Shown one piece after another: positions 4,101 to 47,433 of a DNA stretch of 47,433 bases (positions are counted from its first letter, which is position 1; the number at the start of each line of letters is the position of its first letter). Source of the DNA: Marsupella aquatica (lineage: Eukaryota; Plantae; Marchantiophyta); assembly GCA_973895155.1 (NCBI GenBank), contig OZ316896.1, forward strand, positions 23,471,067 to 23,518,499, read 5' to 3'. The notes below the pieces were generated by a model. That model searched no databases. It saw only the letters and a list, made by a program, of their open reading frames with translations, and was not told where the DNA came from. The position numbers were made by a program, and so were the translations under genes.

Positions 4101-4916
4101 CTCTGCTGCTCGGCTGGCTTCTTTGGTGCCGCCGACCTCGTTCTTTTTGCCGGGGTGGCTTCATCGTTGACGGCTCCCTTCCTCTTCATCTCTGCTGCCG
4201 TGGAGGTTTCTCCTAGCACCGTTGCCTGGGTCCACCTTTCCGTGCTACCCTTTAATTCCCAGTGTATGTCGTTGCAGTTCTTGATGGCCTCTCGGATGCC
4301 GACGACGCTGTCCTTGCAAAACAGAAGATCGTCGAGTTGATTGGAAGTAGGCGTCCACAGGAACTCGTCCTTGATGAGTTCGCCTCCTAAGAAAGCCGTC
4401 TTCTACAGCTCCCACAATCGAGCGAGCTCCTGCCGTTCTCGAGCTGCCCTTTCTGACTCCTCGTCCTCGTAAGTCTTGATGTACTCAGTTGCCCGTTCGA
4501 ACAGGCATCCCCAGAAATGTGCCGCTTGATTGACGTTGCTCATACCCTCCTTAGGTTGATCGTCGGTATCTACTCTCTCCCCGAGTGCTTGCCTAAGCAG
4601 CTGACAGTAGTTGGCCTCCCGTAGTCGTCTGCCTAGTTCGTGCTCGCAAATGAGCCACCATCTCCTGCAAGCGCTCCTTACCCCTCTCCTCTGCCGGTCC
4701 TTCTTCCCGTTGATCCTTCCTAGCCGCCGACGCTTAACGCGCCCTAACCCTAATCGGGTTTTCACCCTCAGCCTTACCTCCGGCCTCTGCCCGGGTTCCA
4801 TGGTTGCCCCTAATTGTTTATATTTTCCTTGTTTTGTCACTATACTAAGGTGTTCCTAGGGTGCCTTCCTGCTTTACCCACTTAACCGGCCGAGTGATTC
4901 CTGTCTAGGCATCACA
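1191..4916 (-). mobile_element. Giant LTR, intact TG end at 4916, truncated at 1191
   Basis: Minus strand starts TGTGATGCCTAG at 4916 with no PPT before it; its flank is an older diverged LTR copy; near-identical to 20736-24485. Confidence 0.9.
1202..4801 (-). pseudogene. LTR-encoded coiled-coil ORF with one nonsense change (CAG>TAG at 4403-4405)
   Basis: ORF-track pieces 4403..4840 and 1202..4219 are in frame and match 20812..24474. Confidence 0.85.
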
Positions 4917-6703
4917 GAAGGACGACATGCTCAGTCAAACATACGAAAAGATGAATAAGATGGAGTTTGATGTTGTCCACGAGCTCAACAAGGAGCTAAG
5001 GGAAACCCGGTAGGAAGGGCGGCCTTGCAAAAGGAGTTGGAGGACACCCGGGGGGAGTTGGACGAGACTCAGGAGGAGTTAGAGGACATCGTGCGGAAGG
5101 TGGAAAACTTGCAGCGACGAAAGTCTAGCCGAGGAAAGGAAGTGCCCGGCTACACCAAGTAGACCCCCGGTGGCAACGACGAGGTTGCCAGGTGTGGTAC
5201 TGGCCGAAAGACTAGCCGAGGTACCCTCACCCTTGCCAAAAGTAATGAGCAAGGGGAAGATGTTGGCTGCCTTGGAAGGGAAGGACAGAAAGAAGCGAAA
5301 ACCTGTCGGGTCAGGAGTCAACACACTTCCCCAGGCCACCGTGGCCGAGGTAGAGAGCATGGCACCGGCCTTATGCGAGGTCATGGCTGTGAAGGTGGCA
5401 GTATTATAAGTCGGCCAAGATGACCAGTTGGGAGCCGCCATGACAAGAGTGGACTCAAGGTTGTCAATCATCGATAGGCATCAACCCCAACCTTGGGAAG
5501 AGGAGACAACCCGCCTTGTAGGACGAACCTATGAGGAAGACAACTACAGCGAGGAGGGGGATGTCGGCACTAACAAAGCCGATGCCGGGACTACCAATGC
5601 CGATGCCATAGTAACGGTCCCACCACTTCTGCAGGCCGGGGCGGCAGCCAAAGCCAAATTAAGACGAGGCCGGGGTTGGACCAGATAACGCCGAGGACAG
5701 GTTGACCCAATCAAGAGCATGTAATCTGTCAGAGGATGAACTTACGGCATTGGCCGCAAAAGGAGGATTAGGGGCGTCCATTGGGGATGAGCCACCACTG
5801 GCATGACGGTGGTGGAGGGTCGTCCCTTTTAGGGAGGGCAGACGTGGGGGAGGGAGGCGTGAGTGGGCAAGGCAAGCGCAAACCTCTAGAATTAAGATTA
5901 GGATCAGGACCAAGAGGCGGCCCTGACACTTAGATTAGTGGAATTGTGGATCTGTTGGTAAGAGCAACACTTGTGCTCTTGCCCCGTTGTACATAGGCAG
6001 ATTACAATTAGAATAGATTAGGCTTACGTTGCAATGAATTGGTAGGTGAGTTTCCAGGATAAATACCTGTGCAACGGGGAGTTCAGGCCTTTTTTCTTAA
6101 GCAAGTTTTTAGTGCACCAGCAAGACTGAGATCATTTAGTAAAAGAAGGTCTCGGTTAGTTATACAGTGAATTTTGTGTATATTCATGTTTCCTCATACC
6201 CATGAGCTGAATAGAGTTGGCCTTCCGGCTTAGTTCGCAGATCTTGTGTATGAGAAGTATTGTTTGTATGAGAGTTTCACCAAGTATAACTTAGTCAGTA
6301 AAAGTCATTTTTCTATTTGTGTGTCGCATCAACTTGTATGAAGATTGCCCACACCAACTATAGGAGAGAAGGGGAGTAAGAAAAGTCACAAGAAGCAGTG
6401 AGAGTTGGATGTGTCGAGCTGAGAGAGGTCTTAGCGGCTACCCAAGCCAATTGGGCATCATTCTGGGGGCGGAATCCAAACATAACTGAAGGAAGACCGA
6501 AAGGAGAGGATAAGGAGAGGCATAGAGTAAGTTGGCAACATACCTCATGACCCGATGAAGGATCTGTCCAGTATATGTGGGTAAGAAATTAGCAGCGTCT
6601 CATGCCGATGAGCCACGGAACCGAACTTGGCAAGACCAAAACCGATAGGAATCGGCTTGTTCTGGGAGGTTCTTGGGTCCAAAGGGCCATGGGACGCACC
6701 ACA
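4917..6703 (+). mobile_element. Older, diverged copy of the giant LTR (degenerate ORF 3' end plus LTR core), ending CACCACA
   Basis: Collinear similarity to about 23679-25394 (GAAGGACGA.ATGCTC..., TTTTAGGGAGGGC, GAGAGTTGGATGTGTCGAGCTGAGAGAGGTC, CCATGGGACGCACCACA) with many substitutions, indels and stops. Confidence 0.85.
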
Positions 6704-6911
6704 AGAGCCCTGGCCCTAGTCCGTGTGAACAACACAGATTCAAATCCCTTGGCCAGGCTGGCTAGGGGGCGATGGCGTATTACCTTTTCATGCAAATCCA
6801 TATAATAAAGCATGACCAGAATCTAGGATAAAGACCTCCGCTTGAGAGTGAAGCCTCTAGACCGGGGCACAACTACAGTTGGGGGTGAAATAGGAAACAA
6901 TGGGCATCACA
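6704..6911. mobile_element. Possible terminal remnant of another LTR family (ends GGGCATCACA)
   Basis: Only the terminus (reverse complement TGTGATGCC, same 9 nt as the giant LTR start) supports it; no further similarity seen. Confidence 0.3.
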
Positions 6912-8009
6912 ACACTCATCTATTTATGAGCAAACCTTGGGCATTCATACTACCCAAAAATGTTTTTTAGAAGTATCTCAGCGTGGGCATACCGCGTACA
7001 ATATGTTGCTGCGGGTTTTTCTGTGTTTTTCCCCCCGTTGCTTGTTTTTTTCAGCCACCCGTACAATATCCGTACTGAAATCCTTATTTCAATGCACGAC
7101 GCCCATAAAGCAAAGTTTTTCATACGCGAGCCCTCTGCAAAAAACAAATCGCACTGACGTGTGTAGTGAAAAAACAATGTTACTTCGTAATCGAAGACAA
7201 GGAAAAAAACACCGTTTCAAAGGCACTAGAGAATTTCTACTCCACAGATATTGTAAATTTTCATCTCAAATGAATTTACAGGATTTAATTCCAAGCACAC
7301 ACGAGAAATGTTTTTCTTCGCTCTGCACATATATTTGATGGAGCATGGGTTTTTTTGTGTCTATTGGGTGTGTGTGTTTTTCGGTGTGGGCTGCTTGTTT
7401 TTCATTACAAATATGTCGGTGTGTGTAATTTCCTCCCAATATGTTTAGTGCGTGTAATTTTTTTCCCCCCAAATAATGTTGTTGCATTTAGTTTTAAACC
7501 CCCCATGTTTCTGTGTTTTTTTGTTACATGCGGTGTTGGTAGTGTTTTTTCTTTAACGCATTCTATGCTGCCCATTTTTTTATGTGGTTTGTTTTTAGTT
7601 TTTTTTATGGGTTTATTTTCCCATGTGCTCCTCGTGTTCCGTATTTTGTGTAGGGGGCCATGTTTTTTTCTCTCTCATTGCTAGTTTATTTTGTATTTAT
7701 GGTGGATGCGTTGTTGTATATTTTCGAGGAAATTGTACAAAAAAATTCCAAACATATCCGTACATTCAACAATTCAATGTTTTCCAGTACACAGTCCAAT
7801 GCGAATGTCTTACATGGACGGGCGGCCCGTTGAAGTGGTTGGTGTAACGTCATGGGTGGTTTACATTCATGTTGTAAGGTCCTTTGCCGAAAGTGTATAC
7901 GTTTACAGCCGGTGTAAACTGTTGTAAGGCTATATAATTAGATATGTCGGTAGATATGTAAGTATATACGCAAGTAGATAAAGACATTACTTTTGGTTAT
8001 TATTCCTTA

Positions 8010-8520
8010 CTTGGTCAATGGATTACCCCATCTCCTGCAACGTTTCATTATTGCATTACCCTGTCTCTTGCGGGCTTTCGTTTCTAGAAAGCCCCCTGTC
8101 CCTTGCTGGGGTTCATTATGGGGGTTACCCTGTGTCCGTGTCTCCTCTCCAATTTCATCACTGGATTACCCTATGTCTTTCTTCAAGGTTTTTTAAATTT
8201 ATTATCCCGTTTATTATTCTATGTCTTGCCCCGGTATGAATTTTGTTTTGGAATACCATGTGTCTTGCTGGGTTTGTTTTATGGAATACCCTTGTCCCTT
8301 GCTGGTGTTCATTATGGAGCTACCCGGTGTTTGTGTCTCCTCTCCAGTTTCATCACTGGATTATCCTATGTCTTTCTTCGAGGTTTTTTTTATTATTATT
8401 CTATGTCTTGCCCCAGTATGAATTTTGGAATACCCTGTGTCTTGCTGGGTTTGTTTTATGGAATACCCCGTGTCCCTTGCGGGGTTTCATTATTGGGTTA
8501 CCCCGTCTCCTTGGAGAGGA
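8010..8520. repeat. Degenerate tandem repeat, about 180-200 bp unit, about 2.5-3 copies
   Basis: Recurring TGTCCCTTGC.GG.GTT.CATTAT and TTTCATCACTGGATTA.CCTATGTCTTTCTTC blocks. Confidence 0.75.
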
Positions 8521-8569
8521 GCAATTTCATCAGTTATCAGTGACTGATATCAGTCACCGACATTTTTTT

Positions 8570-9090
8570 GGACAATCTCAGAGACCTCTCCAAGATTGAC
8601 CCCTTTTTTTAATCAATCTCGGAGGCCTCTTCGAGATTGACGTCCTATTTTGTGTCAATCTCAGAGGCCTCTCCAAGATTGGTCAACAAAGTCTCCAAGA
8701 ATTGTTGGAATCTCAAAGAGCCTCTTCGACATGGGATCAACACTGGGTTGGAATCTCAGAGAGCCTCTCCAAGATTGGTTCAAGACTCCATTCAAATCTC
8801 CGAGAGCCTCTCCAAGATGGGATCAACACTGGGTTGGAATCTCGGAGAGCCTGGTTCAAGACTCCATTTGAATCTCGGAGAGCCTCTCCAAGATGGGATC
8901 AACACTAGGTTGGAATCTCGGAGAGCCTCTCCAAGATGGGATCAACACTAGGTTGGAATCTCGGAGAGCCTCTCCAAGATGGGATCAACACTGGGTTGGA
9001 ATCTCAGAGCCTCTTCAAGATGGGATCAACACTGGGTTAGAATCTCGGAGAGCCTCTCCGAGATGGGATCAACATCATTTGGAATCTTGA
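8570..9090. repeat. 43-bp tandem array containing palindrome TCTCGGAGAG-C-CTCTCCAAGA
   Basis: GATGGGATCAACAC recurs at 8892, 8935, 8978 (period 43). Confidence 0.9.
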
Positions 9091-9473
9091 ACATTTTATT
9101 ATTATGAAAGGATACAAAATTAGATCATTCTACCCACTAACACTAAACATGCATCTTCGAGATGCATTCACCCTGAGCGTGCTATATCTGACACCAGTTT
9201 TCTAACCTTGCTAAGTGTCAAGATTGGTTGGTGGATCTCTTGGTCGCTCTCTAGATCTCGTCCACAAATGTTTTTATAGCACCAATACAAGTGTTTGCAA
9301 GGGAAGAAGTATCTTCTAGTATCCCTCATGATGAAATTTTGACAAAAGTAAGCTGGGAACACACATATCTATACACAGTGGGCTGAATTGCGGTCACAAT
9401 GAGTGTTGGAAAGTACCACTCGTAAGCCAGTTGCATTCCCTTCTTCAATTTGAGTCATGGAAGTGAATCTCAT

Positions 9474-12400
9474 TGTAACAAGGTGATAAAGAGATAAATG
9501 ACTATTTACTCCTTAACAACTCGATTTTGTTCCCGTTAGGAGTGGATAAGATCGAAAAGACTGAATTAACACAATTTGAGAAGTTTACACCAACATTCTT
9601 AGGTTGGAGAGATTTCTAATGATCTCTTTAACATAAGTGTTTAACCACAAACTCAAGTGGGTAATCCTTAGGATTCACAGTGCAATAATAAAGACTAGAA
9701 TTAACAAAGATTGAAACTAGAGGGAGAGTAGATAGGAGTTTTCAAAGTGCAAGGGAATTGAATTTCTTACCATCGCCACTCCTTCAATAAGGATTATGGC
9801 CTAATTTAAGATTCAGAAATCAACATTTTCTATGTTTTTTTGATTTCTCGTAGCAACTCTTCTCCATCTATTGAATTTAGAAGACATGAATGTAAATCAA
9901 CCCGGGACACTTTTCTGGTCTTGTTAAGGACGGTACTCGGATACTCGAATTGGCTTACTTCTCCTACAATCCTTAAGATTGTTTGTTTAAGTTTTGTGCA
10001 AATGTCAATTTCCTCTTTGGTGAATCTTCCAAATGTATTGATCACAAATCTCATTGATCTTTCAATATCATTAAGGCACACTCTAGCATTCATTGAACAC
10101 TTCACAACAACTCAAGGGTTGCTAAAACTTCTTCCTTTTACTTAACCATGGTAAAAAGAAGGGAAGAAAAGGCATAGATTTCTCCAAAATCAAAATGGGG
10201 AAATCAAATGTATCTCTCTCCTCTCGTTGACTTTGGATTCTCCTCCTTTTGTACTAAAGGTGGAGATTATGAAAAGATATGCCTTTTCAAAACCCAAGTC
10301 TAAAGAAGTATGTAAATAAAAGTAAACTACCCTAGTAAAAAAAAATAGAGTATAGACTCCAATGGATATATCAACAAAATGCTGGAGTCTACTTACTCAT
10401 ATACTAGTCTACATAGCCATTTCTAGGTCTAAACTAATGTGGCTCCAACTCTCTAAATATAACTCTATTCTGGTCCTAGCTTTTGGGAAGGAACCTCCTC
10501 AGGGTTAGCCATAGCAAGGGGTTTTGGTCGAAGGTAAACTCCCTGCTGGCCAGTGGTAAAAGGGATGGACGGGTCAATATCCATGTTCTCCTGATGGGCA
10601 CTTGGGTCATGAGAATAAGTGTAAGAATGAGAATGGAAGTGGGTACTGGGAGTGGGGAAACCAGGAGGGTTGAGGGGTGATGAGGGGCCAGTGGAATAGA
10701 CTCCTTCATGAGGACTAGGAGAGAAAGATCTGGTAGTAAAGGGAAGAATCTCAGTATCAGCTAATAGCTCCTCTGTAGTCAAGTCACTCATCTCCCTTAA
10801 GGCTTCACAGGTCTTTGAGAGGCCTGCAAGTGCATCATCCACCTTGGCACTCACATCTACCACTAAATGGTTAATCTTGGAGAAAAGGATGAGGGTGGTG
10901 TTCTTGGCCAAATACTCATCATAAATCTGGGCCTTAAGAAGATCCAGAGAAGCTATCTTAGTCAAAGGTTCAATCAGATCCAAAGATTGAGTGATACTGA
11001 GTTGGAGAGTATGCTCAAGCTCATTCTTCTTCTTACTCCTTTCCAACTGCTGTTTGAGTTCAGATACCTTCTTTTTGAGGAACTCATTCTCCTTCTCCAA
11101 CTTCCTCTTATCTGTGGCATCACTCATGGTGGAGATCTTTTCAAGAATCTGCCCTGGTTTCACTCCTAACTTCTGAGAAATGTCAGTGATGACCTTCTCC
11201 ATCACAGTGGTCTTCTTCTTCACCTTCTGGAATGTGTCTGAGATGATCTGGAAATCAGCTAGGGTGTCTTGGGAGGCATGGTCGGGTGCATCCGGAAATT
11301 CAGCTGGGTCGACAAAGGCCGGGTCGGCAAAGTCCGGGTCGAGGTTCCGGGTCTTTCAAGGATTTTTTTCTGCTGGCTCCTCATCCTCACTGTCATCAGA
11401 GGTGGCCTGGGTGATATCTGGATCTTCCTCTCCATACTTTATGAAGTTGAACTTGGCCAATAGTAACTTCTTCTCTTCTCTGAACAAGACTCCTTCAAAG
11501 CTATATAAATGTACCAGGTAGCAGGAGAGGGGAGTAGGACCCTTATTGGACAGGTTCTGCACCAACTTCCTTATCAGATCAAAGATAAGCTTAGCCCAGT
11601 TGACTTTTCTTTCTCCCTTGTAAGCAGCAACAATGGTAGAGCCCACTCCAACAGTAACTCTTCTTGGCTTCTCAGGATACAGCAGGGGTAGCAGGAAGCT
11701 GAAGACTCGTTTCAGATCAGGATCCAAACACTTAGAAACATTGAACCCGTCCTTATTGTTGATGCTTCCTTTGAAGTAAGGAAGAATTAGATTGACAGCT
11801 CTCCCCACTGGACCTTCTCCATCATCCTCCAATACAAACACTCCTGCAACCATCATCTGAGTCCATCGCTCAGGTCGGCCTTTGGATGTATCCTTAAACT
11901 CAACCGGACACTCCTTGGATCGGATCTCTCGGATCATGTCTTCACTCTGATAACTCCAGGGGAGCTCCATCAGAGACTCACAGCCCATCTTGAGCAAAGA
12001 CTCCCTCAATTTGACCTTCTCAGCTTCACTGTCCGGAATAGCTGGCCTTAGAATTTTCATGGCAATGGGGACCTCTTTTCTCTTCGATCGTCTCACAGGG
12101 GCTTTAACCGGAGTGGGTGCAGGTGATGTTGAGGTTGAATGCCCCTTAGAAACGCGAGAAGTGGACATTCCGGCTGGATCCGTCCCTTGCTCCATAGGAT
12201 TTCTGGAAGCAACAAATCGATTTCCAATAAATGGCCTGCCTTCTCTTCGGCGAGCTCTACAATGCTGCGACTTCAAAATGTTCAATCACTTCGGTGTTGA
12301 CCAATGGTAGTGATGTCCGGGTTGACCTGGCCATGGCGTTTCTGATCAACTGACAAGCGCTTCTGGAGAAGTTGATCAAGATTCCGTCAATCACAATTCA

Positions 12401-12954
12401 GGTGCATCGAACGTGGGGCCAATATAGACGCAATCGGGCCTACAATGGGGATGTCCGGATCGACCTGGCCTCCCTTCTCACAACCGATGTATGCACGATC
12501 AGGATCTCAAACTTCCTGCCTTCACTCCCAGCGGTGTAGTAGGCATTCCCCTCACAACGAATCAGTCAGTACCCTCATATCCAGGCTCTCATCAAGAAAT
12601 GCAAGATTGGTCCTATAATCCGGACCCAAGATCCTCTACCAAAAGGGTAGAGCCTCCTCTCTCTACTGCTTAAACAGCCTAATGCGCTCGGGAGCTCAAA
12701 ACCTACTAAGTTTGGCTTTGAGAGGTGTGAGAGGCCGGATCGACTCTCCTCCCTTATATCCGGATTCTACTGTGGTTGCGCCTGTGTTTGACTTATGGTT
12801 TTAAAAACTTTGGCAATGCACAGCTATTATTCAGTAGAGTCGCGTTGTAAGATTCCTTATCTCATTATGGTTTATAGTAAAAAGTTCCGGGTCGATCCTC
12901 CTTCTCTAATATCAATCCGGGTAGACCTTAGATGGGCTTGAAAGTCTCATAACA
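9474..12954 (-). mobile_element. 3.48-kb solo-LTR-like insertion of a second family, carrying one long ORF
   Basis: Termini TGTAAC...ATAACA; flanks CTCAT / CTTCAT (imperfect 5-bp TSD); removing it rejoins the transposase frame (RLKRDLKTTM|RFTSMTQIE); no gag/pol and no terminal direct repeats seen. Confidence 0.7.
10465..12195 (-). pseudogene. About 576-codon ORF (plant-TE-type domain + coiled coil) with one in-frame TGA at 11356-11358
   Basis: ORFs 11356..12285 and 10465..11223 are in the same frame and read through NP*KTRNLDPDFADP; motifs resemble the giant-LTR ORF. Confidence 0.75.
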
Positions 12955-14489
12955 CTTCATAGTAGTCTTCAGGTCCCTCTTTAGCCTCATTTGAGATCTT
13001 AAACTTAAAAATTCTAAAATTTATGGCTAGTTAACCCTTCTTTCATAAACATCCTTATCTCACACTCATCAACTCGGATTTTGCACTCTCATCAATACGT
13101 TTCTTTGCATCTGGCGTCACAATTGATCTTCTTTGCCGTAAGCGGCCATTGCGACGGCTCAGCCTAACATCGGGCTTCAATGGATCCATCCGCTCTGGGT
13201 AACTATTCAAGTTCACAATTACATCACCGGGACTCACCATTGAATCACTAGGAATGATGGCCTGTACCACATTCAATCCATTGTCATGGAGAAAATCAAT
13301 TTCCTCTTGTGTTAGATAGGTTCCTCGAGCAATTGGGACCTTCTTCGGTAGTGGGGGCAGCCACCCAGTAACATATGCCATGAAGGATTTCTGGCAACAC
13401 TCGTTGTTTGGGCAAAACCAAAACTTTTGTGGAATGTTTGGATCCTTGTAACTGCTCCCAGCCAATAAGCACAATCCTACCACACCCAACGTTGCATGAT
13501 GAAATCCCACCTCCTTGATGTATAGACCGCATGTTGGACGTTCTATGCCTTTGAAGGCACCTCTACAAGCGGGACCACTTCCATGGTGACTGATGCGAGA
13601 CAAAAATAACATTTCTGGCATCACATTGCTCTCCTAAACTTATCTCTATTCGCCTCTATTATGCAAAGGTTCAGCAAACCGCATTGGTGGACAAACAGGG
13701 GGTGACCTTGGTATTGACCTTGTTGGGGTTGGAGGAGGTGGAACACGTGTTGCCCTTGTTGGGGGTGGAGGAGGAACACGGGTTGACTTCCTTGGGGTTG
13801 GTGGTGGAGGGACACATGTTGACCTTGTCGCACGCTGTGGTGAGCTCTCCAAAATCACCACATCTGATCCACTAGAGCCTGTAGGAGAGTCTGACAAGGT
13901 TGACAAACTGTCCACCACGTCGGGAATGGTACTTTTCAAGTTTGTATCTTGGCTTGAAATCCCCTTGAACTTCCGCTTCTTAGGTCGAGTTACTAGAATG
14001 ACATCATCGCAATGCATGGGAGTCTTCTACTATAATAGCATCAGCTAGAACCTTGCCTCGCACCGACATTTGTTGAGTTTCATAGTCACCAGGAATTGGG
14101 TCCCCCGAAGCATATTCAACCATCTCCGGTTGAGTCATCACTGTATTCAACTTTGGGAAGAAACTTTTAACATTCCCAACCATCTTGGCATCCAAAAGAC
14201 AAAGTTAAAAAAGGCTTGGGTCACGGCCCTTCCTCCCTTGGGTCGTGTAGTTGACAAGGGCACCAATTTGATTTGATGCACGGGTTGCATCCGTTATACA
14301 AGATTGCACTATTTCAATCTTGGTCGTGGAAGACCATCAGCGCATTGCGGCATGCACAGATTCTGCCCCGCTATGGTTCAACATCAATGCAGACTTAGTT
14401 CTGTCCATGTCCTACACAAAAATCAAAGAAAAGAGTATTATAAAAAATATGTACATGGCTCATCTTGTACAACATCTACAACATGTCCA

Positions 14490-14830
14490 ACGTGGTCCAT
14501 CCTGGAGAGGCTCTCCGAGATGACCCATGTGCTTACAAAAGTCGGAGAGGCTCTCTAACATGTCTAGTTTCTTGCTGGATATCTTTGAGATGACCTACGT
14601 GTTTCATCTTGGAGAGGTTCTCCGAGATGAACCATGTGTTTACAAAACAAGAGTTGTCTCTCAAACATGTTTACCTTCTCGCCCATTTGTTTCATCTTGG
14701 AGAGGCTCTCCGAGATGACCCACATCTTCCCTCTCGGAGAGGCTCTTTGAGATGACCCACATGTTCCATCTCAGAGAGGCTCTCTAACATGTCCAAGATG
14801 AATCTTCTCGAAGAGCCTCTCCAAGATGGA
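14490..14830. repeat. Intronic array of the palindromic motif CATCTTGGAGAGGCTCTCCGAGATG
   Basis: About 8 degenerate copies inside intron 14412-14856. Confidence 0.8.
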
Positions 14831-16944
14831 ATATTACTAAGAATTAATAAACTTACGAGCCGAATGAAGTTTCCCCATTGGGAGAACCGCACAATCCACC
14901 ACGAAAGCCATGTCTCGAGTGACTTGGTTTTTCCTTTGATTGCATTTCCATTTTTCCACCAATCCTTCATCTTCTCAAAAGTAAAAAATACAAGAACCAC
15001 ATTGGCAGCGTCCCTCAATGAATCCATAAGCTCCTTATGCTCAACTTGTTTGCCCTGGAAGAATGCATTTCTTTGTCATCTTCTCCACTGATTGTGCCTA
15101 GTGAAATGCATCAGATTGCTCCTTTTGAGAATTAACTCGACCGTCCCAAAATGTGTTTCGAACTGCATTCCACCCAACTGCAGCATTATCGGCAATAAAC
15201 CCGCAAAAGGTAACATTATCAAGCCCATTTGCCTTACACACTTGCTTCATGACCTTCCATGCAGTTTGCAGTGCAGCAGTATCTTCCAAAACTAGCTCGC
15301 ATACAAAAATTATGCACAGACCTCTGTATAGGTGCTCATATACATGAGCTGACATTGTGCACCATTGCTTCTTAGTCATTCGATGCATAACATCAAACAT
15401 CACCCATGAGTCTTGTAGATCTCCACCAGGCTGCATCCTTTGAATGAGATTGACTCCAGACCCTGGACCCTTTATAGTCATCTTGAAAATGTGTGGGCGC
15501 TCATCTGTATCTAGCTTCTGGTTTGGAAATAGAGTGCTATGGACAAATGAAAACGCTGTTTCTTTTTGAAGATCAAGGATGATTTGGAGGTCGAATGAGG
15601 CATGGGTATACTTGCGTATACTCTGTATCACAGATCTTACAAGTAATCAATCTGATAGGATCGCCAATGTTTCATTCAGATCCCGCGCTTCCTCAAATGT
15701 GACAATCCCAGCAACCTTGTCATCAAATATATCCCTTAGAGCTTTAATTGTGTCACTCTTGATCATAGACGATATTGCATTTGGATTCTTCTTCAATTTC
15801 TCCTCCATCAACTTATGTAAGAAAGCTTTCCGATCTTTCTTGAGAACAAATTTGGCCGGATGTGAGTGACTCCCAACATGCATAGCAACACGTGTCACGT
15901 GCTTGTAAATGTAATGGTCATGAGAGGTTGGAGTGATGTAGAACATTTTGGCTGGACACTTGGCTATACACTTAGGAGGCTGATCACAAAAGGCGCAAAT
16001 CATACTCTCTGCTGGAACTAGTTGCCCAACAAGAAATAAAACCTCATTTCTCCCACCCCTATCTCGCTACCATTATGTGGAATTGCGCTCATTGTTACTT
16101 GTAAATGCTGGACAATCTGAATGTTGACATTTCAAAGAGCCCAGGCATCTCACATTCCCAATCTTATACTTGAAGCCTCCCTTGTTCAGCTTAGGTCCAA
16201 TTTGGGCTCCTGTCTCGATGAGCTTGCTCCACAAATGGCAATCATTTTTCCGCTCCATACCCAAGAAGAAGGCACCCTTTGTGTGGATACCTGTGAATGG
16301 GGGGAGCTCAAAAATGCAATCTCCATCATACCATTCAGGTAGATTCATGACTTGTTGGGGATAATGCACTTTGAGAATGGTATGGGCAGCCTTTACACAT
16401 CGCGATGCGCCTTTCCCTTTCAACATTGCAACAACAACACTTTCAAGAAATTTGGCTTGCTCTACCTCTGCCGGCCACTCTGAAATCTTCTCTCCGTTTT
16501 GAGATTGCAAACAAACTTCAGTAAGAGGAACAGAGCACAGCTTCTGCTGAAGGACGTACAAAACTTCACTTTTCAGATGCCATATCCTTTCCTCTCCACT
16601 CTCCTTTGAGTTTGCCTCAATCAATGGTAAGATGTCGTTGGCCTCAAAGAGTGCCCACTCCCCAATCTCAACATCAAACCGACGAGCTAATTCGTTGTCT
16701 GGTGTATGCCAAACAACACCATCAGTCGCAAGCACAACAACGTCTCCATTGTCTGGAAACGTGATCCTCACACGGCCAGCCATGATAACCACTTGAAGAA
16801 AGACTAATGTTGAGCACCACGAGAGTTCAAGTGGCATCTACTGAGAGATTCCTCATTCATGTAAGGGATTTTATTGCCTTTCCGCGAACGTCAATTCAGT
16901 TTTGTTTCTCAAGACCGTAACTTAATCAGCAAACAGTATGTGAA

Positions 16945-17345
16945 AACTATTATTGATTCTTATGACTTTGTTTTGTCAGAGTACCTTATCGCCCAGACAA
17001 AGCGTAAAAATTGTTATTGACTCTTCTTTCTTTGTTGAATATGTCAAGATTGCTTTGTCAGAGTACCTTACCGCCCAGACAAAGTGTAAAAACTATTATT
17101 GACTCTTCTTTCTTTGTTGAATATTTCTGACTTTGTTTTGTCAGAGTACCTTACCGCCCAGTCCGAGCGTAAAATCTGTTATTGACTCTTCTTTCTTTGT
17201 TGAATATGTGAACATTGTTTTGTTAGAGTACCTTATTGTCCACACCGAGCGTAAAAATTGTTACAAATATTCTTCCCCCGTTTAATATGTAACAATCCTT
17301 CTTGACAACGTACCCTTGTGAGCGTGAAAACTGTTATTGACTATT
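16945..17345. repeat. About 82-bp tandem repeat, about 4.5 copies, upstream of the transposase start
   Basis: TGT(C/T)AGAGTACCTTA at 16974, 17056, 17139, 17221. Confidence 0.9.
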
Positions 17346-17399
17346 GACTTTGCGTCTAGGTAAAGCAAGTTTAGGGTGTCCATTAGGCCAACTGACAAG

Positions 17400-17687
17400 C
17401 CATCTTGCGCCAAAGTTCAGCGAGGACCATGTTAGAGAGGCTCTCCAAGATGCCATCTTGCACAGGTATGAAGCCCGGACCCATGTCAGAGAGGCTCTCT
17501 GGGATGCCATCTTGCGTAGGTATGAAGCCTCGACCCATGTTAGAGAGGCTCTCCGAGATGCCATCTTGCGTTGGAGTTCAGCAAACACCATGTTAGAGGG
17601 GCTCTCTGAGATGCCATCTTGCATAGGTATGAAGCCTCGACCCATGTTAGAGAGGCTCTCCGAGATGCCATCTTGCGCCGGAGTTCA
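17400..17687. repeat. 54-bp tandem array (left part) containing GAGAGGCTCTCCGAGATG
   Basis: CCATGT at 17427, 17481, 17535, 17588, 17642; the array resumes in register at 20283. Confidence 0.9.
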
Positions 17688-20282
17688 TGTCACCTGCTTA
17701 TCAAAATGATTTACACGACAAATATGTATTTCCTCCTACTAAAATTGTTTGTTATCGTATGACGGGAACGTGGAGGGACGCTATTAGGATTCTATTGCAT
17801 GTAGGATGAGTATGTTTATTTCCACTCCCGGAAATGTAATTTTTGATCAAGTCTACTGACTAGCCTCTCTGCTTTTGATCAAGTCCCATGGACTACACCA
17901 CACACACACTCCTATTGGTCGTTGGTGGAGTGCTGTCACCACCCCTCCTACTCACATGGTTGACCAAACCGTGCAAGGATTCCTTAGATACTTCTTGGGG
18001 AAATAACACAATCGTGAACCAGAAAAGGTAACGCCACACCAAAACTTGAGGAATCAAACCAAATCCATATCTTTTGGAAAAATGTCGTAACACATTGCAA
18101 GGACAACCCGGCCTCCTGCCGTCTCCCCAACTCCTGCCTCACTGGGGCAAGTGCTACACCTCTACCTCACTACTCTGGCTTGATTCCCTCTTCTGGCTAT
18201 GAACTAACTTTCCTAAAACCAACACTAGACTGAGTTCCCCCCTCACTACTCCGGGGCTCTTCTCTTAAATATTGAAAACAAACACACCAAAGCACCCCTC
18301 TAGGAGTCACAAAGATGGCGGCTACCCTAGCGGCGCCGCTAAAACCCTTCACAAAGAAATCTCTAACCTAAAACATGCGGCACACACATGCTCCTGAAAA
18401 CCCTAAACTAACTACGGGACCGTCGGTGCCAACCGTAATCATCCGTAGTCTCGGGGAAGTGAGGGGGCCACTCATGGTCGAAACCTCAAATATGTCCAAC
18501 TACTCCCCTGAGGGGAGCCCTGGATAGCTCTGCTCCTCCTGATCACGAATCCGTAAACGGCTCCGCAAACGGACTCCGGATGACCCAGTTATGGTCGTTT
18601 CAGTATCCCGTACCAACCAACTTCGCGGGGCCCTATCTTCCTCATTCTTGCTCCGTTTGAGGAGCGCCGCCTCTTGTTGGAATCAGCTCCGCGAGCTCTT
18701 TCCAACAAGCCCGTGAGTGCCCACTTCCCAAAAAATTTCAAAGTCAAGAGGTCGTACGACCAAGTCCGTACGGCCACCCTAGTCCTCCTCCTCCTCACTC
18801 ACGGTGCCATGGCTTGAGCCCCGTGAGTTGGTCTCCTCATCAGTCCTCCTCACTCACGGTGCCCTGGCTTGAGCCCTGTGAGTTGGTCTCCTCATCGCTC
18901 TCCATTGGAGTGGATACCACTCCGCTAAACAAGGACTCACTTGAGTCCACCACCTCCTATCCTATCTATCTACCCTGCCTACTAGCCTCAATCCTCCTGA
19001 TCGCCACCACCGGTCCATTGTAAAAGGAAGGGGCCCCTATAATTGTCGAAACTAAAATTTTCTCAGAATTCACTTCTGAAAACATATCTGAGGAGCCCTC
19101 CTCTTCCTGATCACGGCTCCGTAAACGGTGCGCAAAACGGAGGTCAAACGGCCAAGATATGATCGTTTAACTTTTCACGGGGCACTGTCTCCCTCCGTTT
19201 CGTCCGTACAACACCAGGGGGCCCCGGCTTTGCAAAACACGGTTTACGGTTTCCACATATGTGCTGCTATCTACGTACGGCCTCACAACCCCCGTATTCT
19301 CAAAAAACGAGATTTGTTGTATCTCCCCCGTCTTAGCTCCGTTTTGGCCGTGTGACACATCGTTGGATTCAGCTCGGCGAGCTCTTTCCAACAAGCCCAT
19401 AGACTCCTGATTTTGAGATGGTCGAAAATCTGATGTTCGTACAATCAGGGTCCGTACACACGTTGAAAGCAAGCACAAGAGGGAAAGGGTTTAGGGTTTA
19501 GGGTTTAGGTATGGGTGGAAACCCCACAAGTGAGAATAGAGAAAAATGGAAGGAAGAAAGTGTGAGGGCGCCTTGTACGAATATGTTCTTCTACGGAGTG
19601 CCCCTTCTACGGAGTGGTTCTTCTACGGAGTGGTTCTTCTACGGAGTGCCCCTCCACGGAGTGGGGAGGGAAAGAGAGCAAAAACCATGTGAATATCACA
19701 CAAAGGGTGAAGGGGAACACAAGTATGGGAGCCCCTTCCTTCTAAGGGCCCTCCCACCATCACTACTCCAAGATTGCCTAGTTTGTCGTTTTACGGGCGT
19801 TGAGGTCCCTCAAGATGTCACTGTTTGATATAGACCTAAAATCAACTAGAGAACCTCAGTTTCGCATGGGGCTCATTGAGGGCTTCAAAATGAATCCAAA
19901 CATGACCATGTTTGGAATAGTCTAGCACAGCAACGTCTATTTTAAGTTTCAATGTTTTTTATATTTTGGTCATTCTTCCCGTTTTGTGCCTAACGTGGAG
20001 CCTCCGACCAGCCCCCACCCCTCCAAGATGCCCACACCTTGGCTCCAAGTCCTTGGGCTGTCTTGTGGCCTCCTTGTACCCCCTCAATGGTTCCCTTGTC
20101 ATCCATCACCGCCCGACACCCCTCTCAACTCCGGCCTCTGGTTGTCGCATCCATTTATTAGAACTAACAAAAATAAAAAATTTGAAAATCCAAACACTTT
20201 TACTACACCTACTTGTCTTTCTACTTATATACGCAATTATAAGTCATCACTAAGTTACTATCGGGTTTGGGGCCCTGTCACA
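17688..20282. mobile_element. 2595-bp solo LTR (third family) with perfect 5-bp TSD
   Basis: TGTCAC...GTCACA termini; TSD GTTCA at 17683-17687 and 20283-20287; splits a 54-bp repeat unit; no convincing ORF. Confidence 0.85.
19486..19509 (+). repeat. Three plant telomere-type TTTAGGG units (telo-box-like)
   Basis: AGGGTTTAGGGTTTAGGGTTTAGG. Confidence 0.7.
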
Positions 20283-20600
20283 GTTCAGCAAACACCATGT
20301 TAGAGGGGCTCTCTGAGATCCCACCTTGCGCAGGTATGAAGCCTCGACCCATCTTAGAGAGGCTCTCCGAGATGCCATATTGCACCGGAGTTCAATAAAC
20401 ACCATGTTAGAGGGGCTCTTTGAGATGCCATCTTGCGCAGATATGAAGCCTCGACCCATGTTAGAGAGGCTCTCCGAGATGCCATCTTGCGCCGGAGTTC
20501 AGCAAACACCATGTTAGAGAGGCTCTCCGAGATGCCATCTTGCACCGGAGTTAAGCAAGGACCATGTTAGAGAGGCTCTCTGAGATACCATCTTCAGGTG
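20283..20600. repeat. 54-bp tandem array (right part)
   Basis: Same unit as 17400-17687, about 6 copies; further motif copies up to 20735. Confidence 0.9.
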
Positions 20601-20850
20601 TGTAGCAAGGATCAGGCTCAATATTTGTCAGAGAGCCAATTCAAAGTTATCACCAACACCTCCTGTCCTGATGTGTCATCTCGGAGAGGCTCTCCTAGGT
20701 CTGACCTTGTGTAATATGCCATTTTAGAGCCTCTCTGTGATGCCTAGACAGGAATCACTCGGCCGGTTAAGTGGGTAAAGCAGGAAGGCACCCTAGGAAC
20801 ACCTTAGTATAGTGACAAAACAAGGAAAATATAAACAATTAGGGGCAACC

Positions 20851-23800
20851 ATGGAACCCGGGCAGAGGCCGGAGGTAAGGCTGAGGGTGAAAACCCGATT
20901 AGGGTTAGGGCGCGTTAAGCGTCGGCGGCTAGGAAGGATCAACGGGAAGAAGGACCGGCAGAGGAGAGGGGTAAGGAGCGCTTGCAGGAGATGGTGGCTC
21001 ATTTGCGAGCACGAACTAGGCAGACGACTACGGGAGGCCAACTACTGTCAGCTGCTTAGGCAAGCACTCGGGGAGAGAGTAGATACCGACGATCAACCTA
21101 AGGAGGGTATGAGCAACGTCAATCAAGCGGCACATTTCTGGGGATGCCTGTTCGAACGGGCAACTGAGTACATCAAGACTTACGAGGACGAGGAGTCAGA
21201 AAGGGCAGCTCGAGAACGGCAGGAGCTCGCTCGATTGTGGGAGCTGCAGAAGACGGCTTTCTTAGGAGGCGAACTCATCAAGGACGAGTTCCTGTGGACG
21301 CCTACTTCCAATCAACTCGACGATCTTCTGTTTTGCAAGGACAGCGTCGTCGGCATCCGAGAGGCCATCAAGAACTGCAACGACATACACTGGGAATTAA
21401 AGGGTAGCACGGAAAGGTGGACCCAGGCAACGGTGCTAGGAGAAACCTCCACGGCAGCAGAGATGAAGAGGAAGGGAGCCGTCAACGATGAAGCCACCCC
21501 GGCAAAAAGAACGAGGTCGGCGGCACCAAAGAAGCCAGCCGAGCAGCAGAGCAGGAGGCAGGGAGAAGCCGAAGAGGAGGAGGTCGATCCCATCAAGGCC
21601 ATTCCAACCAGGGATGACACCTGGAAGGGCTGGGCGGCAACCCTACCGGTGGAGGTGCAACTACATTTTGCACGGGAGGAGGATGCATGCTTTACGGCCA
21701 TGCAGACCAAGAAGTACCAAGGCTTCATGGCCGGATCCGGCTTGGAGGCCTTTGTAAGATTACCATGGCTGAAGCCGGAGGTACCGGAGTCAGACCTATT
21801 AGAATTCGTGGGGTCATGGGAACCCGAGACCAATTGCACGAGGATATATGGGAAGGATTTCTATCTTACTCCCAAGGTGATTGCCGAAGTGTTTGGCTTG
21901 CCGATGGGCAATAAGACCAAAGTTGATACCAGGAAGACCTTGCCTGACAAGGAGTTCCGGTCGTTCCCCGGGCCATCAACGAAGAATGGCTTCTTCCGGA
22001 ACACCTGCACCAACCCGCACATAGGAGAGATGATCGACTTCTTGCGGGTGACCATGCATTGTAACTTGCCGAGGGCAGAGATCGGCAAGGCACAGGTCTA
22101 TCTGGCAGAAAGGCCAGACCCAAGCCGGGACTACAACGGGTACCTCCTCAACCAATTGAAGAAGATCTTAAAGGAGGAGCAGCAGGTAATTGGCATGGGG
22201 AGCGTGTCGCGGCTTGGCTATCACATGCCGCTGTTGTGCCGGTATGCCAGAGGTCAGACTTTTGCCCCGGTACTTCCCCTGCAGGTAAGGGCACCCGAGG
22301 AAGCTCCAACGCCGAGGCCGTTGGCTGAGAAGCCTCAACCACCTGTTAGTCCTACGATCGAGCAGGTGTTTAGGCCCAGGAAGGAAGACTTGCCGATGCA
22401 GCAACCAGGCATGCAGAGTCTGCTGAAACTACTGGAGAAAGAAAAGAAATCGGCATCGGCAACAACAACGGCAACGGCAACAATGCAGGACACTACTACA
22501 GAGGTAGGCCTACACCAGCTCACAAGAGAAAACCCCTTTGCTGGAGACAAGGAGAGAATCAGGCCGGAATCCAAGCCAGGTGTTCGAATGTACGTGGGAA
22601 CCTCAAGCTCCGAATCTGAGGCAGAATTGCCTGAAGCTCCTACCGAGGAAGAGGAGAGGGAGAAGCCGGAAATCCAAGAGGTAGAGGAGGCAGTGGAGGA
22701 CTGCAGCCATGATAATTCCGGCTATGGGTCGGACCATCACGTTCCAGGAGTAAGGACCTGTGGCCGGTTTGTCCCCACACTTCCAAGGGTAGTGCGAGGG
22801 GACCCCAACCAGCAGAGTAGCCCTGAGTCTCCCCCACCAGATGTTGCTCCCCCGAGCTTCGACGGCATAAAACAGACGGTGCAGGAATTTCAGGAGCGAA
22901 TCAAGCAGGAGGAAGAGGCCGCCCTGGCTAAGGAAAAGGATTTACCAGGAGGAGATTGGCCGGAGGACATCAGGCGGCTAGCCGAAAAAGGAAGCAAACC
23001 TCTAGCCACGATTGAAGAGATCCGCAGGACGGCTTGGGAGCAGAGGCCACGATGGGCGATGCCGATCACTTCTACTTACTCCACCTACGCTAAGAATAGA
23101 GCCATGGAGTATGGTGAGATGTGTGGGGAACTTGCGCTCGGCATCTTTGGAGAGGAGTTGGAGGTAGGACCCTTTTTCCATAGGGAGCAGTTGGAGAAGC
23201 ACCAATTAGAAGAAGCGGTGGCTTTAGAGAGAAGCAAGAAGGACGAGGTCATTCGGCGGCTTAGGAGGATGGGAGCCGAGATTGAAGATCTAAGGGCGGC
23301 CAAGAAAGCCCAAGATGAACTGCGGATTAAACGACATGAGCTGAACATCATGCAGGGGCAGTTGGACGCCGCGCAGGCTGATAATCAGAATATCAAGGAT
23401 AAACTGACTCAGACGCAGGAAGAGTTGGCCGACACGATCAAAGAAAGGGAAAAGTGGAAGCAAGAGCTGAAGAATACAGAGGAGGCCCACATAACAGCCA
23501 ACAGCCGGGCCATGGCGGAGACCCAAAGAAAGGAATGGGCGTTGAAAGGGGAGCTCGAGAAAATCCGCGGAGCCCTTGAGCAGAAGGAGGTCGAGTTAGG
23601 GAAATCCTATCAAGGGATTATGGCGCTGCAGCAGGAGCTTGCGTCCCTGACGGCCAGCTTCAAGGCCGACCTAAGGGAGAAGGACGAGATGCTCGAACAG
23701 ACTTACGCCAAGATGAACCAGATGGAGTCTGTCATCATTGCAGAGCTCGACAAGGAGCTAAGAGCAACCCAGGAGGAGAAGGCTACCTTGAAGAAGGAAT

Positions 23801-24474
23801 TGGAGGAAGCCCACAGGGAGCAGGAGGAGGCCAAAAACGAGCTGGAGGGGGCACGTAAGGACCTGGATGAAACCCAAGAGGAGTTGGAGGAAATCACGAG
23901 GAAGATGGAGAACCTACAGCGGCGGGCCGACAACCAAACAGAGCGGCTGAAGAAACAAGCCGCAGTATTTAAATGCTTAGCTGCAGCGGGTCCATCTCCT
24001 GTTGGGACAAACCAGTTACCAGGGGTGGTAATTGCCGAAGGACAAGCCGCGCCACCTGCACCAGTGCCGGAGGTAAGTGGGAAGGGGAAGGGACCAGCTG
24101 CCGAGCCACCAACGAAGAAGAAGCGGAAACCTTCAGGGTCAAGGAGTAATACGACTTCACAGGCCGTGGTGATCAAGGAGGTAGACCCAACACCGACCCC
24201 AGACAGGGTCACGGCTAGGGATCCAACTACCCTAGGGGAAGGGGAAGCCGAAGCCGTGAGAGTGGCTGAAGCCGAAGCCGTGAGAGTGGCTGAGGCCGAA
24301 GCCGTGGGTATTGCTGAGGCCGGTGTCGAGGCTGAAGCCGAAGGTGGACCCAGTCAGGCCGAGGGAGAGTTGACTCGGTCAAGGGCAGGTAATCTGTCAG
24401 TAGGCGGGCCAACGGCAGTGGCTGAGGAGGAAGTGTTGGGGGCGTCCATTGAGGATCCACCACCGGTGTCGTGA
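20851..24474 (+). CDS. Intact LTR-encoded protein, 1207 aa from the first ATG: plant-TE-type N-terminal domain, long coiled coil, NLS, acidic repeat tail; function unknown
   Basis: Open frame 20812..24474; ATG in GCAACCATGG context; E/K/Q/L heptad-rich region; PTKKKRKP; no clear transmembrane segment. Confidence 0.85.
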   Translation: MEPGQRPEVRLRVKTRLGLGRVKRRRLGRINGKKDRQRRGVRSACRRWWLICEHELGRRLREANYCQLLRQALGERVDTDDQPKEGMSNVNQAAHFWGCLFERATEYIKTYEDEESERAARERQELARLWELQKTAFLGGELIKDEFLWTPTSNQLDDLLFCKDSVVGIREAIKNCNDIHWELKGSTERWTQATVLGETSTAAEMKRKGAVNDEATPAKRTRSAAPKKPAEQQSRRQGEAEEEEVDPIKAIPTRDDTWKGWAATLPVEVQLHFAREEDACFTAMQTKKYQGFMAGSGLEAFVRLPWLKPEVPESDLLEFVGSWEPETNCTRIYGKDFYLTPKVIAEVFGLPMGNKTKVDTRKTLPDKEFRSFPGPSTKNGFFRNTCTNPHIGEMIDFLRVTMHCNLPRAEIGKAQVYLAERPDPSRDYNGYLLNQLKKILKEEQQVIGMGSVSRLGYHMPLLCRYARGQTFAPVLPLQVRAPEEAPTPRPLAEKPQPPVSPTIEQVFRPRKEDLPMQQPGMQSLLKLLEKEKKSASATTTATATMQDTTTEVGLHQLTRENPFAGDKERIRPESKPGVRMYVGTSSSESEAELPEAPTEEEEREKPEIQEVEEAVEDCSHDNSGYGSDHHVPGVRTCGRFVPTLPRVVRGDPNQQSSPESPPPDVAPPSFDGIKQTVQEFQERIKQEEEAALAKEKDLPGGDWPEDIRRLAEKGSKPLATIEEIRRTAWEQRPRWAMPITSTYSTYAKNRAMEYGEMCGELALGIFGEELEVGPFFHREQLEKHQLEEAVALERSKKDEVIRRLRRMGAEIEDLRAAKKAQDELRIKRHELNIMQGQLDAAQADNQNIKDKLTQTQEELADTIKEREKWKQELKNTEEAHITANSRAMAETQRKEWALKGELEKIRGALEQKEVELGKSYQGIMALQQELASLTASFKADLREKDEMLEQTYAKMNQMESVIIAELDKELRATQEEKATLKKELEEAHREQEEAKNELEGARKDLDETQEELEEITRKMENLQRRADNQTERLKKQAAVFKCLAAAGPSPVGTNQLPGVVIAEGQAAPPAPVPEVSGKGKGPAAEPPTKKKRKPSGSRSNTTSQAVVIKEVDPTPTPDRVTARDPTTLGEGEAEAVRVAEAEAVRVAEAEAVGIAEAGVEAEAEGGPSQAEGELTRSRAGNLSVGGPTAVAEEEVLGASIEDPPPVS

Positions 24475-24494
24475 CGGTGCAAGGGCGCCGTTCC

Positions 24495-24515
24495 TTTTAG
24501 GGAGGGCGGACGTGG
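24495..24515 (+). other. Internal relic PPT and putative ancestral LTR start (TTTT-AGGGAGGGCGGA-CGTGG)
   Basis: T-run plus purine tract about 20 nt after the ORF stop; CGTGG is one change from TGTGG, the inverse of the terminal CCACA; present in every copy that spans this point, including the relic. Confidence 0.55.
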
Positions 24516-24963
24516 AGGGAGGAGGCGTGAGTGGGCAGGGCGGGCACGGATCTCCACGTTTAGGATTAGGATCAGAACCAGGAGCGGCCCTGACACTTAG
24601 CTTAGTGGGATTGCGGTCCCACTGGTAGGAGCAACACTTGTGCTCCTGCCTTGCTGTACATAGGTAGATTCGGGCAAGTAGATTACTGTTAAGTAGATTA
24701 GGCTTACGATGCAAAGAATGGCGGATCCACTACCAGGATAAGTACCTGGGCAGCGGGGAGCTCAGGGCCTCTTCTTTAGCAAGTTTTTAGTTTGCACCAG
24801 CCGGGCTGGGATCAAGTAGTACGAGAAGCTCTCGGTTAGTCATACAGTGACCCTTGTGTATATTCATGTTTCCTCATGCCTAAGAGCTGAATAGAGTTGG
24901 CCTCACGGCTTAGTTCGCAGAACTTGTGTATGAGATGTACTGTTTGTATGGCAAGTGCATGGT

Positions 24964-24986
24964 ATGACTCAGTCAGAATGAGTCAT
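24964..24986 (+). promoter_or_regulatory. Inverted pair of GCN4/AP-1-type motifs (ATGACTCA-N7-TGAGTCAT) in the LTR
   Basis: Seen directly; present in the young LTR copies, degenerate in the relic. Confidence 0.4.
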
Positions 24987-25189
24987 TTTGCTATTTGTGT
25001 GTCGCATTAACTTGTGTGAAGAGTGCCCACATCAACAGAAGGAAGGAAAGTAAGCAGGGGAGTGAGAGTTGGATGTGTCGAGCTGAGAGAGGTCTTAGCG
25101 GCTTAACCAAGCCTATTGGGGATCATTCCGGCGGCGGAATCCAAACATACCTAACAAGACGGAGGGGAAGACAGGGGAAGACAGGGGAA

Positions 25190-25204
25190 GGCCTATATTA
25201 GGCC
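25190..25204 (+). promoter_or_regulatory. Putative LTR TATA box (GGCC-TATATTA-GGCC)
   Basis: TATA-like motif about 200 bp before the LTR end, after GA-rich repeats. Confidence 0.4.
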
Positions 25205-25394
25205 GGCTACGTATCTCATGACCCGATGAAGGATCTGTCCAGTATATGTGTGTAAAATGTTAATAGTAGTAGTAGAAGGTTAGCAGCGTCCCATGCCGCT
25301 AAGCCGCGGAAACGGCCTCGCCAAGCGTGAAACCGCGGGAATCGGCTTGAGCTGGGGGGTTTCTTGGGTTTAGGGAGCCATGGGACGCACCACA

Positions 25395-32023: not shown

Positions 32024-32041
32024 CCCCTCCATCTAGCGCCA
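32024..32041 (-). other. Primer-binding site TGGCGCTAGATGGAGGGG (tRNA-Asn type)
   Basis: 4 T after the LTR CA end; about 17/18 match to the complement of plant tRNA-Asn(GUU) 3' end as I recall it. Confidence 0.8.
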
Positions 32042-32045
32042 AAAA

Positions 32046-36705: not shown

Positions 36706-36720
36706 TAGCTCCCCACTTAA
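36706..36720 (-). other. Polypurine tract of right unit
   Basis: TTAAGTGGGGAGCTA abutting TGTGATG. Confidence 0.75.
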
Positions 36721-47161: not shown

Positions 47162-47433
47162 AGGGTTAGGGCGCGTTAAGCGTCGGCGGCTAGGAAGGAT
47201 CAACGGGAAGAAGGACCGGCAGAGGAGAGGGGTAAGGAGCGCTTGCAGGAGATGGTGGCTCATTTGCGAGCACGAACTAGGCAGACGACTACGGGAGGCC
47301 AACTACTGTCAGCTGCTTAGGCAAGCACTCGGGGAGAGAGTAGATACCGACGATCAACCTAAGGAGGGTATGAGCAACCTCAATCAAGCGGCACATTTCT
47401 GGGGATGCCTGTTCGAACGGGCAACTGAGTACA
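47160..47433 (+). mobile_element. Plus-strand LTR fragment starting at LTR position about 164 (TTAGGGTTAGGG), running out of the window
   Basis: Matches 20899-21172. Confidence 0.9.

Follow-up and report, generated by a model that had tools for sequence, protein, structure and literature searches.

A probable solo long terminal repeat in the liverwort Marsupella aquatica with a gene remotely related to one in a neighbouring giant long terminal repeat

The window analysed here is a stretch of 47,433 nucleotides from Marsupella aquatica (Marchantiophyta; assembly GCA_973895155.1, contig OZ316896.1, positions 23,471,067 to 23,518,499 of the forward strand). It contains a 3,591-bp insertion that is probably a solo long terminal repeat (LTR), the product of LTR-LTR recombination, and that carries one long open reading frame (ORF). 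This ORF appears remotely homologous to an ORF located inside the giant LTR of a Ty3-type element in the same window. The insertion family and the giant family are each enriched for a short CG-containing motif of their own. The insertion is organised as follows:

9469 to 9473, no strand: left target-site duplication, CTCAT (empty-site joints and end inspection)
9474 to 13064, minus strand: whole insertion, 3,591 bp, TG..CA, without internal direct terminal repeats, likely a solo LTR (empty-site joints, self-BLAST, junction contigs at 9474)
9474 to 10464, minus strand: AT-rich trailer, 991 bp, putative rest of U3, R and U5; 0 of 10 CG sites in CCGGA/TCCGG
10465 to 12195, minus strand: 576-codon ORF with a basic, proline-rich N-terminus, a globular domain, an acidic linker, a coiled coil and a low-complexity tail; no transmembrane segment
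11017 to 11127, minus strand: predicted coiled coil (crude heptad scan; weak Pfam coiled-coil match)
11356 to 11358, minus strand: in-frame stop; another base in most of the depth of four other runs
11419 to 12075, minus strand: conserved domain of about 220 residues; 517 clusters at E<=0.001; Transposase_32/ATHILA-like by features
11665 to 12000, minus strand: stretch alignable to the giant-LTR protein (profile methods)
12196 to 13064, minus strand: leader, 869 bp, putative 5' part of U3, with a TATAAA-like site at 12871-12876; 7 of 31 CG sites in CCGGA/TCCGG
13065 to 13069, no strand: right target-site duplication, CTCAT (empty-site joints and end inspection)

Contigs from four public runs (X1 to X4) were placed on positions 9100-13300; their depth is not a copy number. 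Empty-site contigs in three of the four runs (X1, X2 and X4) join the left flank to about 13065-13070, and X3 provides a matching loose end at 9473. Contig depth is still high in the bin 12907-13047 in the four runs. Together these observations delimit the insertion to 9474-13064. The first-pass annotation had placed the left TG correctly at 9474 but had closed the element at 12954, giving it 3.48 kb, and had described an imperfect target-site duplication where the two CTCAT copies are perfect. Its description of the content holds. Neither half of the ORF matches a retrotransposon domain in Pfam, in agreement with the absence of gag and pol, and the reading frame of about 576 codons, interrupted by a single stop, runs from an ATG at 12195 to a stop codon at 10465-10467.

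Many variant contigs of the insertion occur in all four runs: it is a repeated mobile unit. At the in-frame stop, most or all of the depth in each run reads a different base, which leaves the frame open in the majority of the family. Depth falls several-fold across 12202-12483, immediately before the ATG, in the four runs (least so in X4), and fixed differences are numerous there. This segment of the leader varies between subfamilies.

The predicted coiled coil, already proposed in the earlier annotation, corresponds to residues 387-423 of the protein (P0001). No env-like transmembrane helix was found in the insertion ORF, whose maximum 19-residue hydropathy is 1.13; a value of 1.6 is reached by 2 of 31 long family members. 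A full library search with the conserved domain retrieved 517 clusters at the threshold given above, and all four named clusters among the 30 looked up come from Calypogeia fissa, a liverwort. A protein language model relates the sequence to Transposase_32/ATHILA (Atlas 0.92, 24 of 30 matches, 167-170 shared features), a likeness that comes without alignment or E-value. A KAxL(F/Y)D motif following the coiled coil (P0001 residues 450-458) is common to the insertion protein, P0002 and the homologue L001 described below (1846-1866), and is present in 7 of the 31 long family members.

The giant LTR of the window includes the following features:

20736 to 25394, plus strand: giant LTR, 4,659 bp, of a Ty3-type element, with an ORF at 20851-24474
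21739 to 22059, plus strand: homologous stretch in the giant-LTR protein, residues 315-421 of the stop-to-stop frame
32033 to 32045, minus strand: TGG-type site resembling a primer-binding site (PBS), after the giant LTR and before gag
36694 to 36722, minus strand: polypurine tract (PPT; 36706-36722) upstream of the giant LTR, and the pol stop codon (36694-36696) about 10 nt inside the LTR

It is a true LTR, with its ORF between the PPT and the PBS-like site. The ORF starts 115 bp inside the LTR and ends 920 bp before its 3' end. Since the pol stop codon sits about 10 nt inside the LTR, the gene follows pol in the manner of an Athila-type 3' extra ORF, except that here the PPT precedes the gene. 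The element forms a tandem array (26411-47159) in which two gag-pol units have one LTR (32046-36705) in common, and the nested and inverted copies of the array are 99% alike. A fragment of an older giant-type LTR, with 75% identity, lies at 4916-6703. At the end of the window (46978-47433), a giant-LTR copy includes a 201-nt inverted repeat with 54 nt between its arms, which is a fold-back rearrangement or an assembly artefact.

A third homologue, L001, was identified in another contig. It encodes 552 codons and belongs to a GC-rich unit that begins at a TG directly bordering an AT-rich flank. This TG precedes the ATG by about 390 bp, and neither pol nor PPT lies upstream. It represents a second, circumstantial case of a gene near the start of a terminal repeat. 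L001 also carries TATA-like sites (GTATATAA) at 379 and 2385. The first precedes the ATG by about 220 bp and the second follows the stop by about 130 bp, an arrangement that suggests one promoter for the gene and another for the element. The layouts of the giant LTR and of L001 make the gene-in-terminal-repeat arrangement more than a one-family accident, as first proposed; the lineage-wide extent also proposed is not established. Related-looking domains of the angiosperm Athila, Ogre and Retand elements are described as internal (PMC6317226), and the LTR position may therefore have arisen independently more than once.

The most enriched words are identical in the insertion and L001 (CCGGA and ATCCGG) while those of the giant LTR and its gag-pol are GCCGA and AAGCCG. 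CCGGA/TCCGG accounts for 14 of the 66 CG sites of the insertion and 43 of 217 in L001, compared with 27 of 434 in the giant family and 11 of 309 in the host DNA. For GCCG/CGGC the counts are 6 of 66, 26 of 217, 146 of 434 and 31 of 309, respectively. The words were picked post hoc as top k-mers, a point that weighs against a specific role for them; L001 and the old giant-type LTR, in which 24 of 69 CG sites lie in GCCG and 1 of 69 in CCGGA, serve as replication. Among 500 shuffles of synonymous codons, none reached the motif effect of L001, of the giant ORF or of gag, and the CCGGA effect was weaker in the insertion ORF (8 of 500). Three further results speak in the same direction as the post hoc choice: CCGGA is absent from all ten CG sites of the insertion trailer, plain CCGG in the insertion ORF is not above codon shuffles (8 versus 6.1; 112 of 500), and in the RH-integrase frame of the giant family GCCG shows no enrichment (15 versus 12.9; 148 of 500).

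The same anatomy, a gene in a solo LTR, could owe its motifs to methylation that depends on context together with CG decay, or to the codon habits of each family, with a protein acting as a chaperone of the particle or pre-integration complex, in nuclear import or in integration targeting. This account is possible, if on the doubtful side. CCG-context effects exist in mosses. Both motifs include CCG, they are short and partly in coding DNA, and CG is strongly depleted in the insertion (observed/expected 0.39), so that the surviving CG sites may be those in less-methylated contexts. Import or chaperone roles have been proposed for plant extra ORFs, whose functions are called unknown (PMC7264820). 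However, the insertion, giant family and host differ sharply (CCGGA 21%, 6% and 4%; GCCG 9%, 34% and 10%), which would not be expected from a genome-wide bias. L001 has the insertion family's motif in another contig while its 205-bp flank has it in 0 of 4 CG sites, a small sample. The old giant-type LTR also retains its own motif at 75% identity.

The identification of the insertion as a solo LTR is based on its TG and CA ends (9474 and 13064), the 5-bp duplication with an empty site, the lack of gag-pol and the lack of a second terminal repeat. It is the best reading, not a demonstration, because no PBS, PPT or gag-pol junction of the insertion family was displayed by the contigs on the insertion ends (best 32 of 366 records), a result that counts against it. 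At least six contigs among these records stop matching at 9474 and apparently run on into 147-2,442 nt of other DNA. Scans for related loci yielded only L001. The insertion might instead be a non-autonomous element or deletion derivative whose ORF was internal in the parent, or a DNA element with TG..CA ends mobilised by an integrase. The missing junctions and the internal position of the angiosperm domains would suit this alternative. So would the terminal 60 bp or so (9474-9535), whose depth exceeds that of the interior several-fold in each of the four runs, suggesting that other subfamilies or elements share the 9474 end or that junction contigs are piled there. It is nevertheless unlikely. 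In a two-LTR derivative that differs from its family by about 1%, a direct repeat should persist, and none was found between the two ends by self-BLAST at word size 7. The terminal inverted match, TGT plus a loose match, is too short for a transposon with terminal inverted repeats (TIRs). Finally, the homologous gene of the same window lies inside an LTR bounded by a PPT and a PBS-like site, and the trailers are alike (920 versus 991 bp).

No DNA similarity was found between the insertion and the giant LTR, which the first-pass annotation had called unrelated. The by-eye alignment given there of the two proteins as distant homologues finds support confined to about 110 residues, half of the N-terminal domain, and profile methods recover the same register. 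A profile of 150 family domains, from which the query was left out, gives 16.9-19.0 bits to four giant-LTR frames, against 2.5 bits for the next of 279 window ORFs and 6.4 for the best of 1000 shuffles. The profile-profile comparison that had been suggested, made by HHalign with 57 sequences, reaches 84.5% (E 6.9e-6, 110 columns). Local alignment of the two pre-chosen domains scores above 1000 of 1000 shuffles. Some results argue the other way. Pairwise BLASTP of the two ORFs falls short of significance (E 0.048), three-sequence profiles are borderline, and with a two-sequence profile built without the insertion protein the giant ORF does not stand out from shuffles (24 of 1000). The significance of the 17.5-bit score holds only for a test of a pre-specified pair, with profile members chosen by likeness to the insertion protein, and does not extend to the level of a database match. 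That the ORFs are non-homologous, aligned by chance and shared coiled-coil composition, as the BLASTP value, the three-sequence HHalign probability of 6.8% and the lack of DNA similarity might suggest, is very improbable, since the signal grew with added independent sequences, lies outside the coiled coil in one register over about 110 columns, and is matched by a reverse search in which the giant domain finds family member P0057 (E 3.5e-5 among 151 proteins).

Two homologous genes lie in two terminal repeats whose families differ in their enriched motif. The proposal built on the observed ends, target-site duplication, repetition in other runs, ORF, large protein family, homology and family-specific motifs is that the insertion is the solo LTR of a bryophyte LTR retrotransposon with an accessory gene, encoding a predicted nuclear motif-binding protein that would keep its own family active in a VANC-like manner. 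As a whole it stands a little short of an even chance. Judging from the layout of the giant element, an ordinary accessory ORF downstream of pol would have joined U3 once a purine tract in front of it took over plus-strand priming, a shift that could occur more than once. The chances are even that the domain adopts a fold of PMD/VANC type and that its coiled coil mediates oligomerisation. It is doubtful, at present, that the protein recognises CCGGA-type sites in the insertion family and GCCG-type sites in the giant family, opposing silencing there; if so, each protein would be expected to prefer the motif of its own family. By analogy with VANC on VANDAL, a nuclear oligomeric regulator would bind this motif and counter silencing, and every LTR, even solo, would come with the regulator gene as well as the sites that it targets. 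Since a gene inside an LTR survives LTR-LTR recombination, solo LTRs could stay coding units rather than inert scars. The broadest form of the proposal, rather unlikely as it stands, is that bryophyte LTR retrotransposons carry in U3 a sequence-specific anti-silencing gene of VANC/PMD fold which co-evolves with a family CG motif across the element, making solo LTRs self-contained trans-activators.

Other observations weaken this proposal. The window copy itself looks dead: it differs from the other runs by 3 synonymous and 9 non-synonymous changes (12 ORF differences among the best 40 of 542 records) and is therefore probably decaying. The protein scores 11.5 bits against a curated cut-off of 45 for membership of PF20167 (Transposase_32) or PF03078 (ATHILA), and 1 of 57 family members matches Transposase_32 (E 0.005). 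The fold match to VANC21 ranks sixth, tied with unrelated chains, for a model with a pLDDT of 57.

The host DNA (6704-20735) is a repeated DNA-transposon-like element interrupted by the insertion. It carries 43-bp and 53/54-bp subterminal arrays with the common core GAGAG(C/G)CTCTCC.AGATG. Its minus-strand ORFs at 13055-16837 have no Pfam matches, and the frame from 13633 extends 33 codons beyond the empty site.

Among known systems, extra ORFs are common in plant Ty3 elements, with PMD, Transposase_28 and Athila ORF-1 as main domains, and LTRs reach about 5 kb (PMC6317226). Sense extra ORFs of the Athila/OTA group include ATHILA ORF-1 (PF03078), Transposase_32 (PF20167), PMD (PF10536) in Ogre and Transposase_28 in Retand (PMC6317226, PMC11728184, PMC7264820). 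Reviews locate them internally and describe their function as unknown (PMC7264820, PMC11728184). The genes described here resemble them as accessory ORFs of LTR elements, in sense orientation to gag-pol in the giant family, with language-model likeness to Transposase_32/ATHILA, basic clusters and no catalytic domain found. They differ in position. Athila/OTA ORFs are described either as following pol and preceding the 3' LTR or as preceding gag, whereas the present genes lie inside the terminal repeat, observed in the giant family, where the PPT is upstream of the ORF, and probable for the insertion, whose ORF lies between the TG..CA ends. The insertion protein also falls below the Pfam cut-offs and its named relatives are from a liverwort. 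Rice Retrosat2/RIRE3 elements have LTRs over 3 kb and an ORF0 upstream of gag-pol (PMC3485330). By description, they share very long LTRs, many solo LTRs and a fast-evolving extra ORF with the present families, and differ in that ORF0 lies outside the LTR. A protein gene within a terminal repeat is also found in the mouse mammary tumour virus, a vertebrate retrovirus whose sag gene, in U3, encodes a membrane superantigen; it has no known relation to the insertion protein. In the literature covered, an incomplete set of main texts, neither the insertion family nor any gene carried within the LTR of a bryophyte element is described.

VANC proteins are anti-silencing proteins of the VANDAL Mu-like DNA transposons of eudicots (PMC5735166, PMC13547354) that target 8-9-bp motifs in tandem repeats of non-coding DNA (PMC5735166). 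In these sources sequence-specific anti-silencing is shown for DNA transposons only. Unlike VANDAL, the present unit is of LTR type with neither transposase nor long TIR. Its motifs, for which binding is predicted, are 4-6 bp long, dispersed and also in coding DNA, a difference that again tells against the analogy; the single short tandem of the insertion (11306-11342) lies inside the ORF. No sequence match to the VANC structure 9LNK was obtained with the insertion protein. Points of likeness are a weak fold match to 9LNK over 134 residues, the combination of a globular domain with a coiled coil, and the enrichment of distinct short motifs in related element families. What the extra ORFs of plant LTR retrotransposons do is posed as an open question in the literature (PMC7264820, PMC12844716). 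If the VANC-like proposal is true, it would add a retrotransposon to the elements with an anti-silencing system and would assign a function to extra ORFs of the Transposase_32/ATHILA type.
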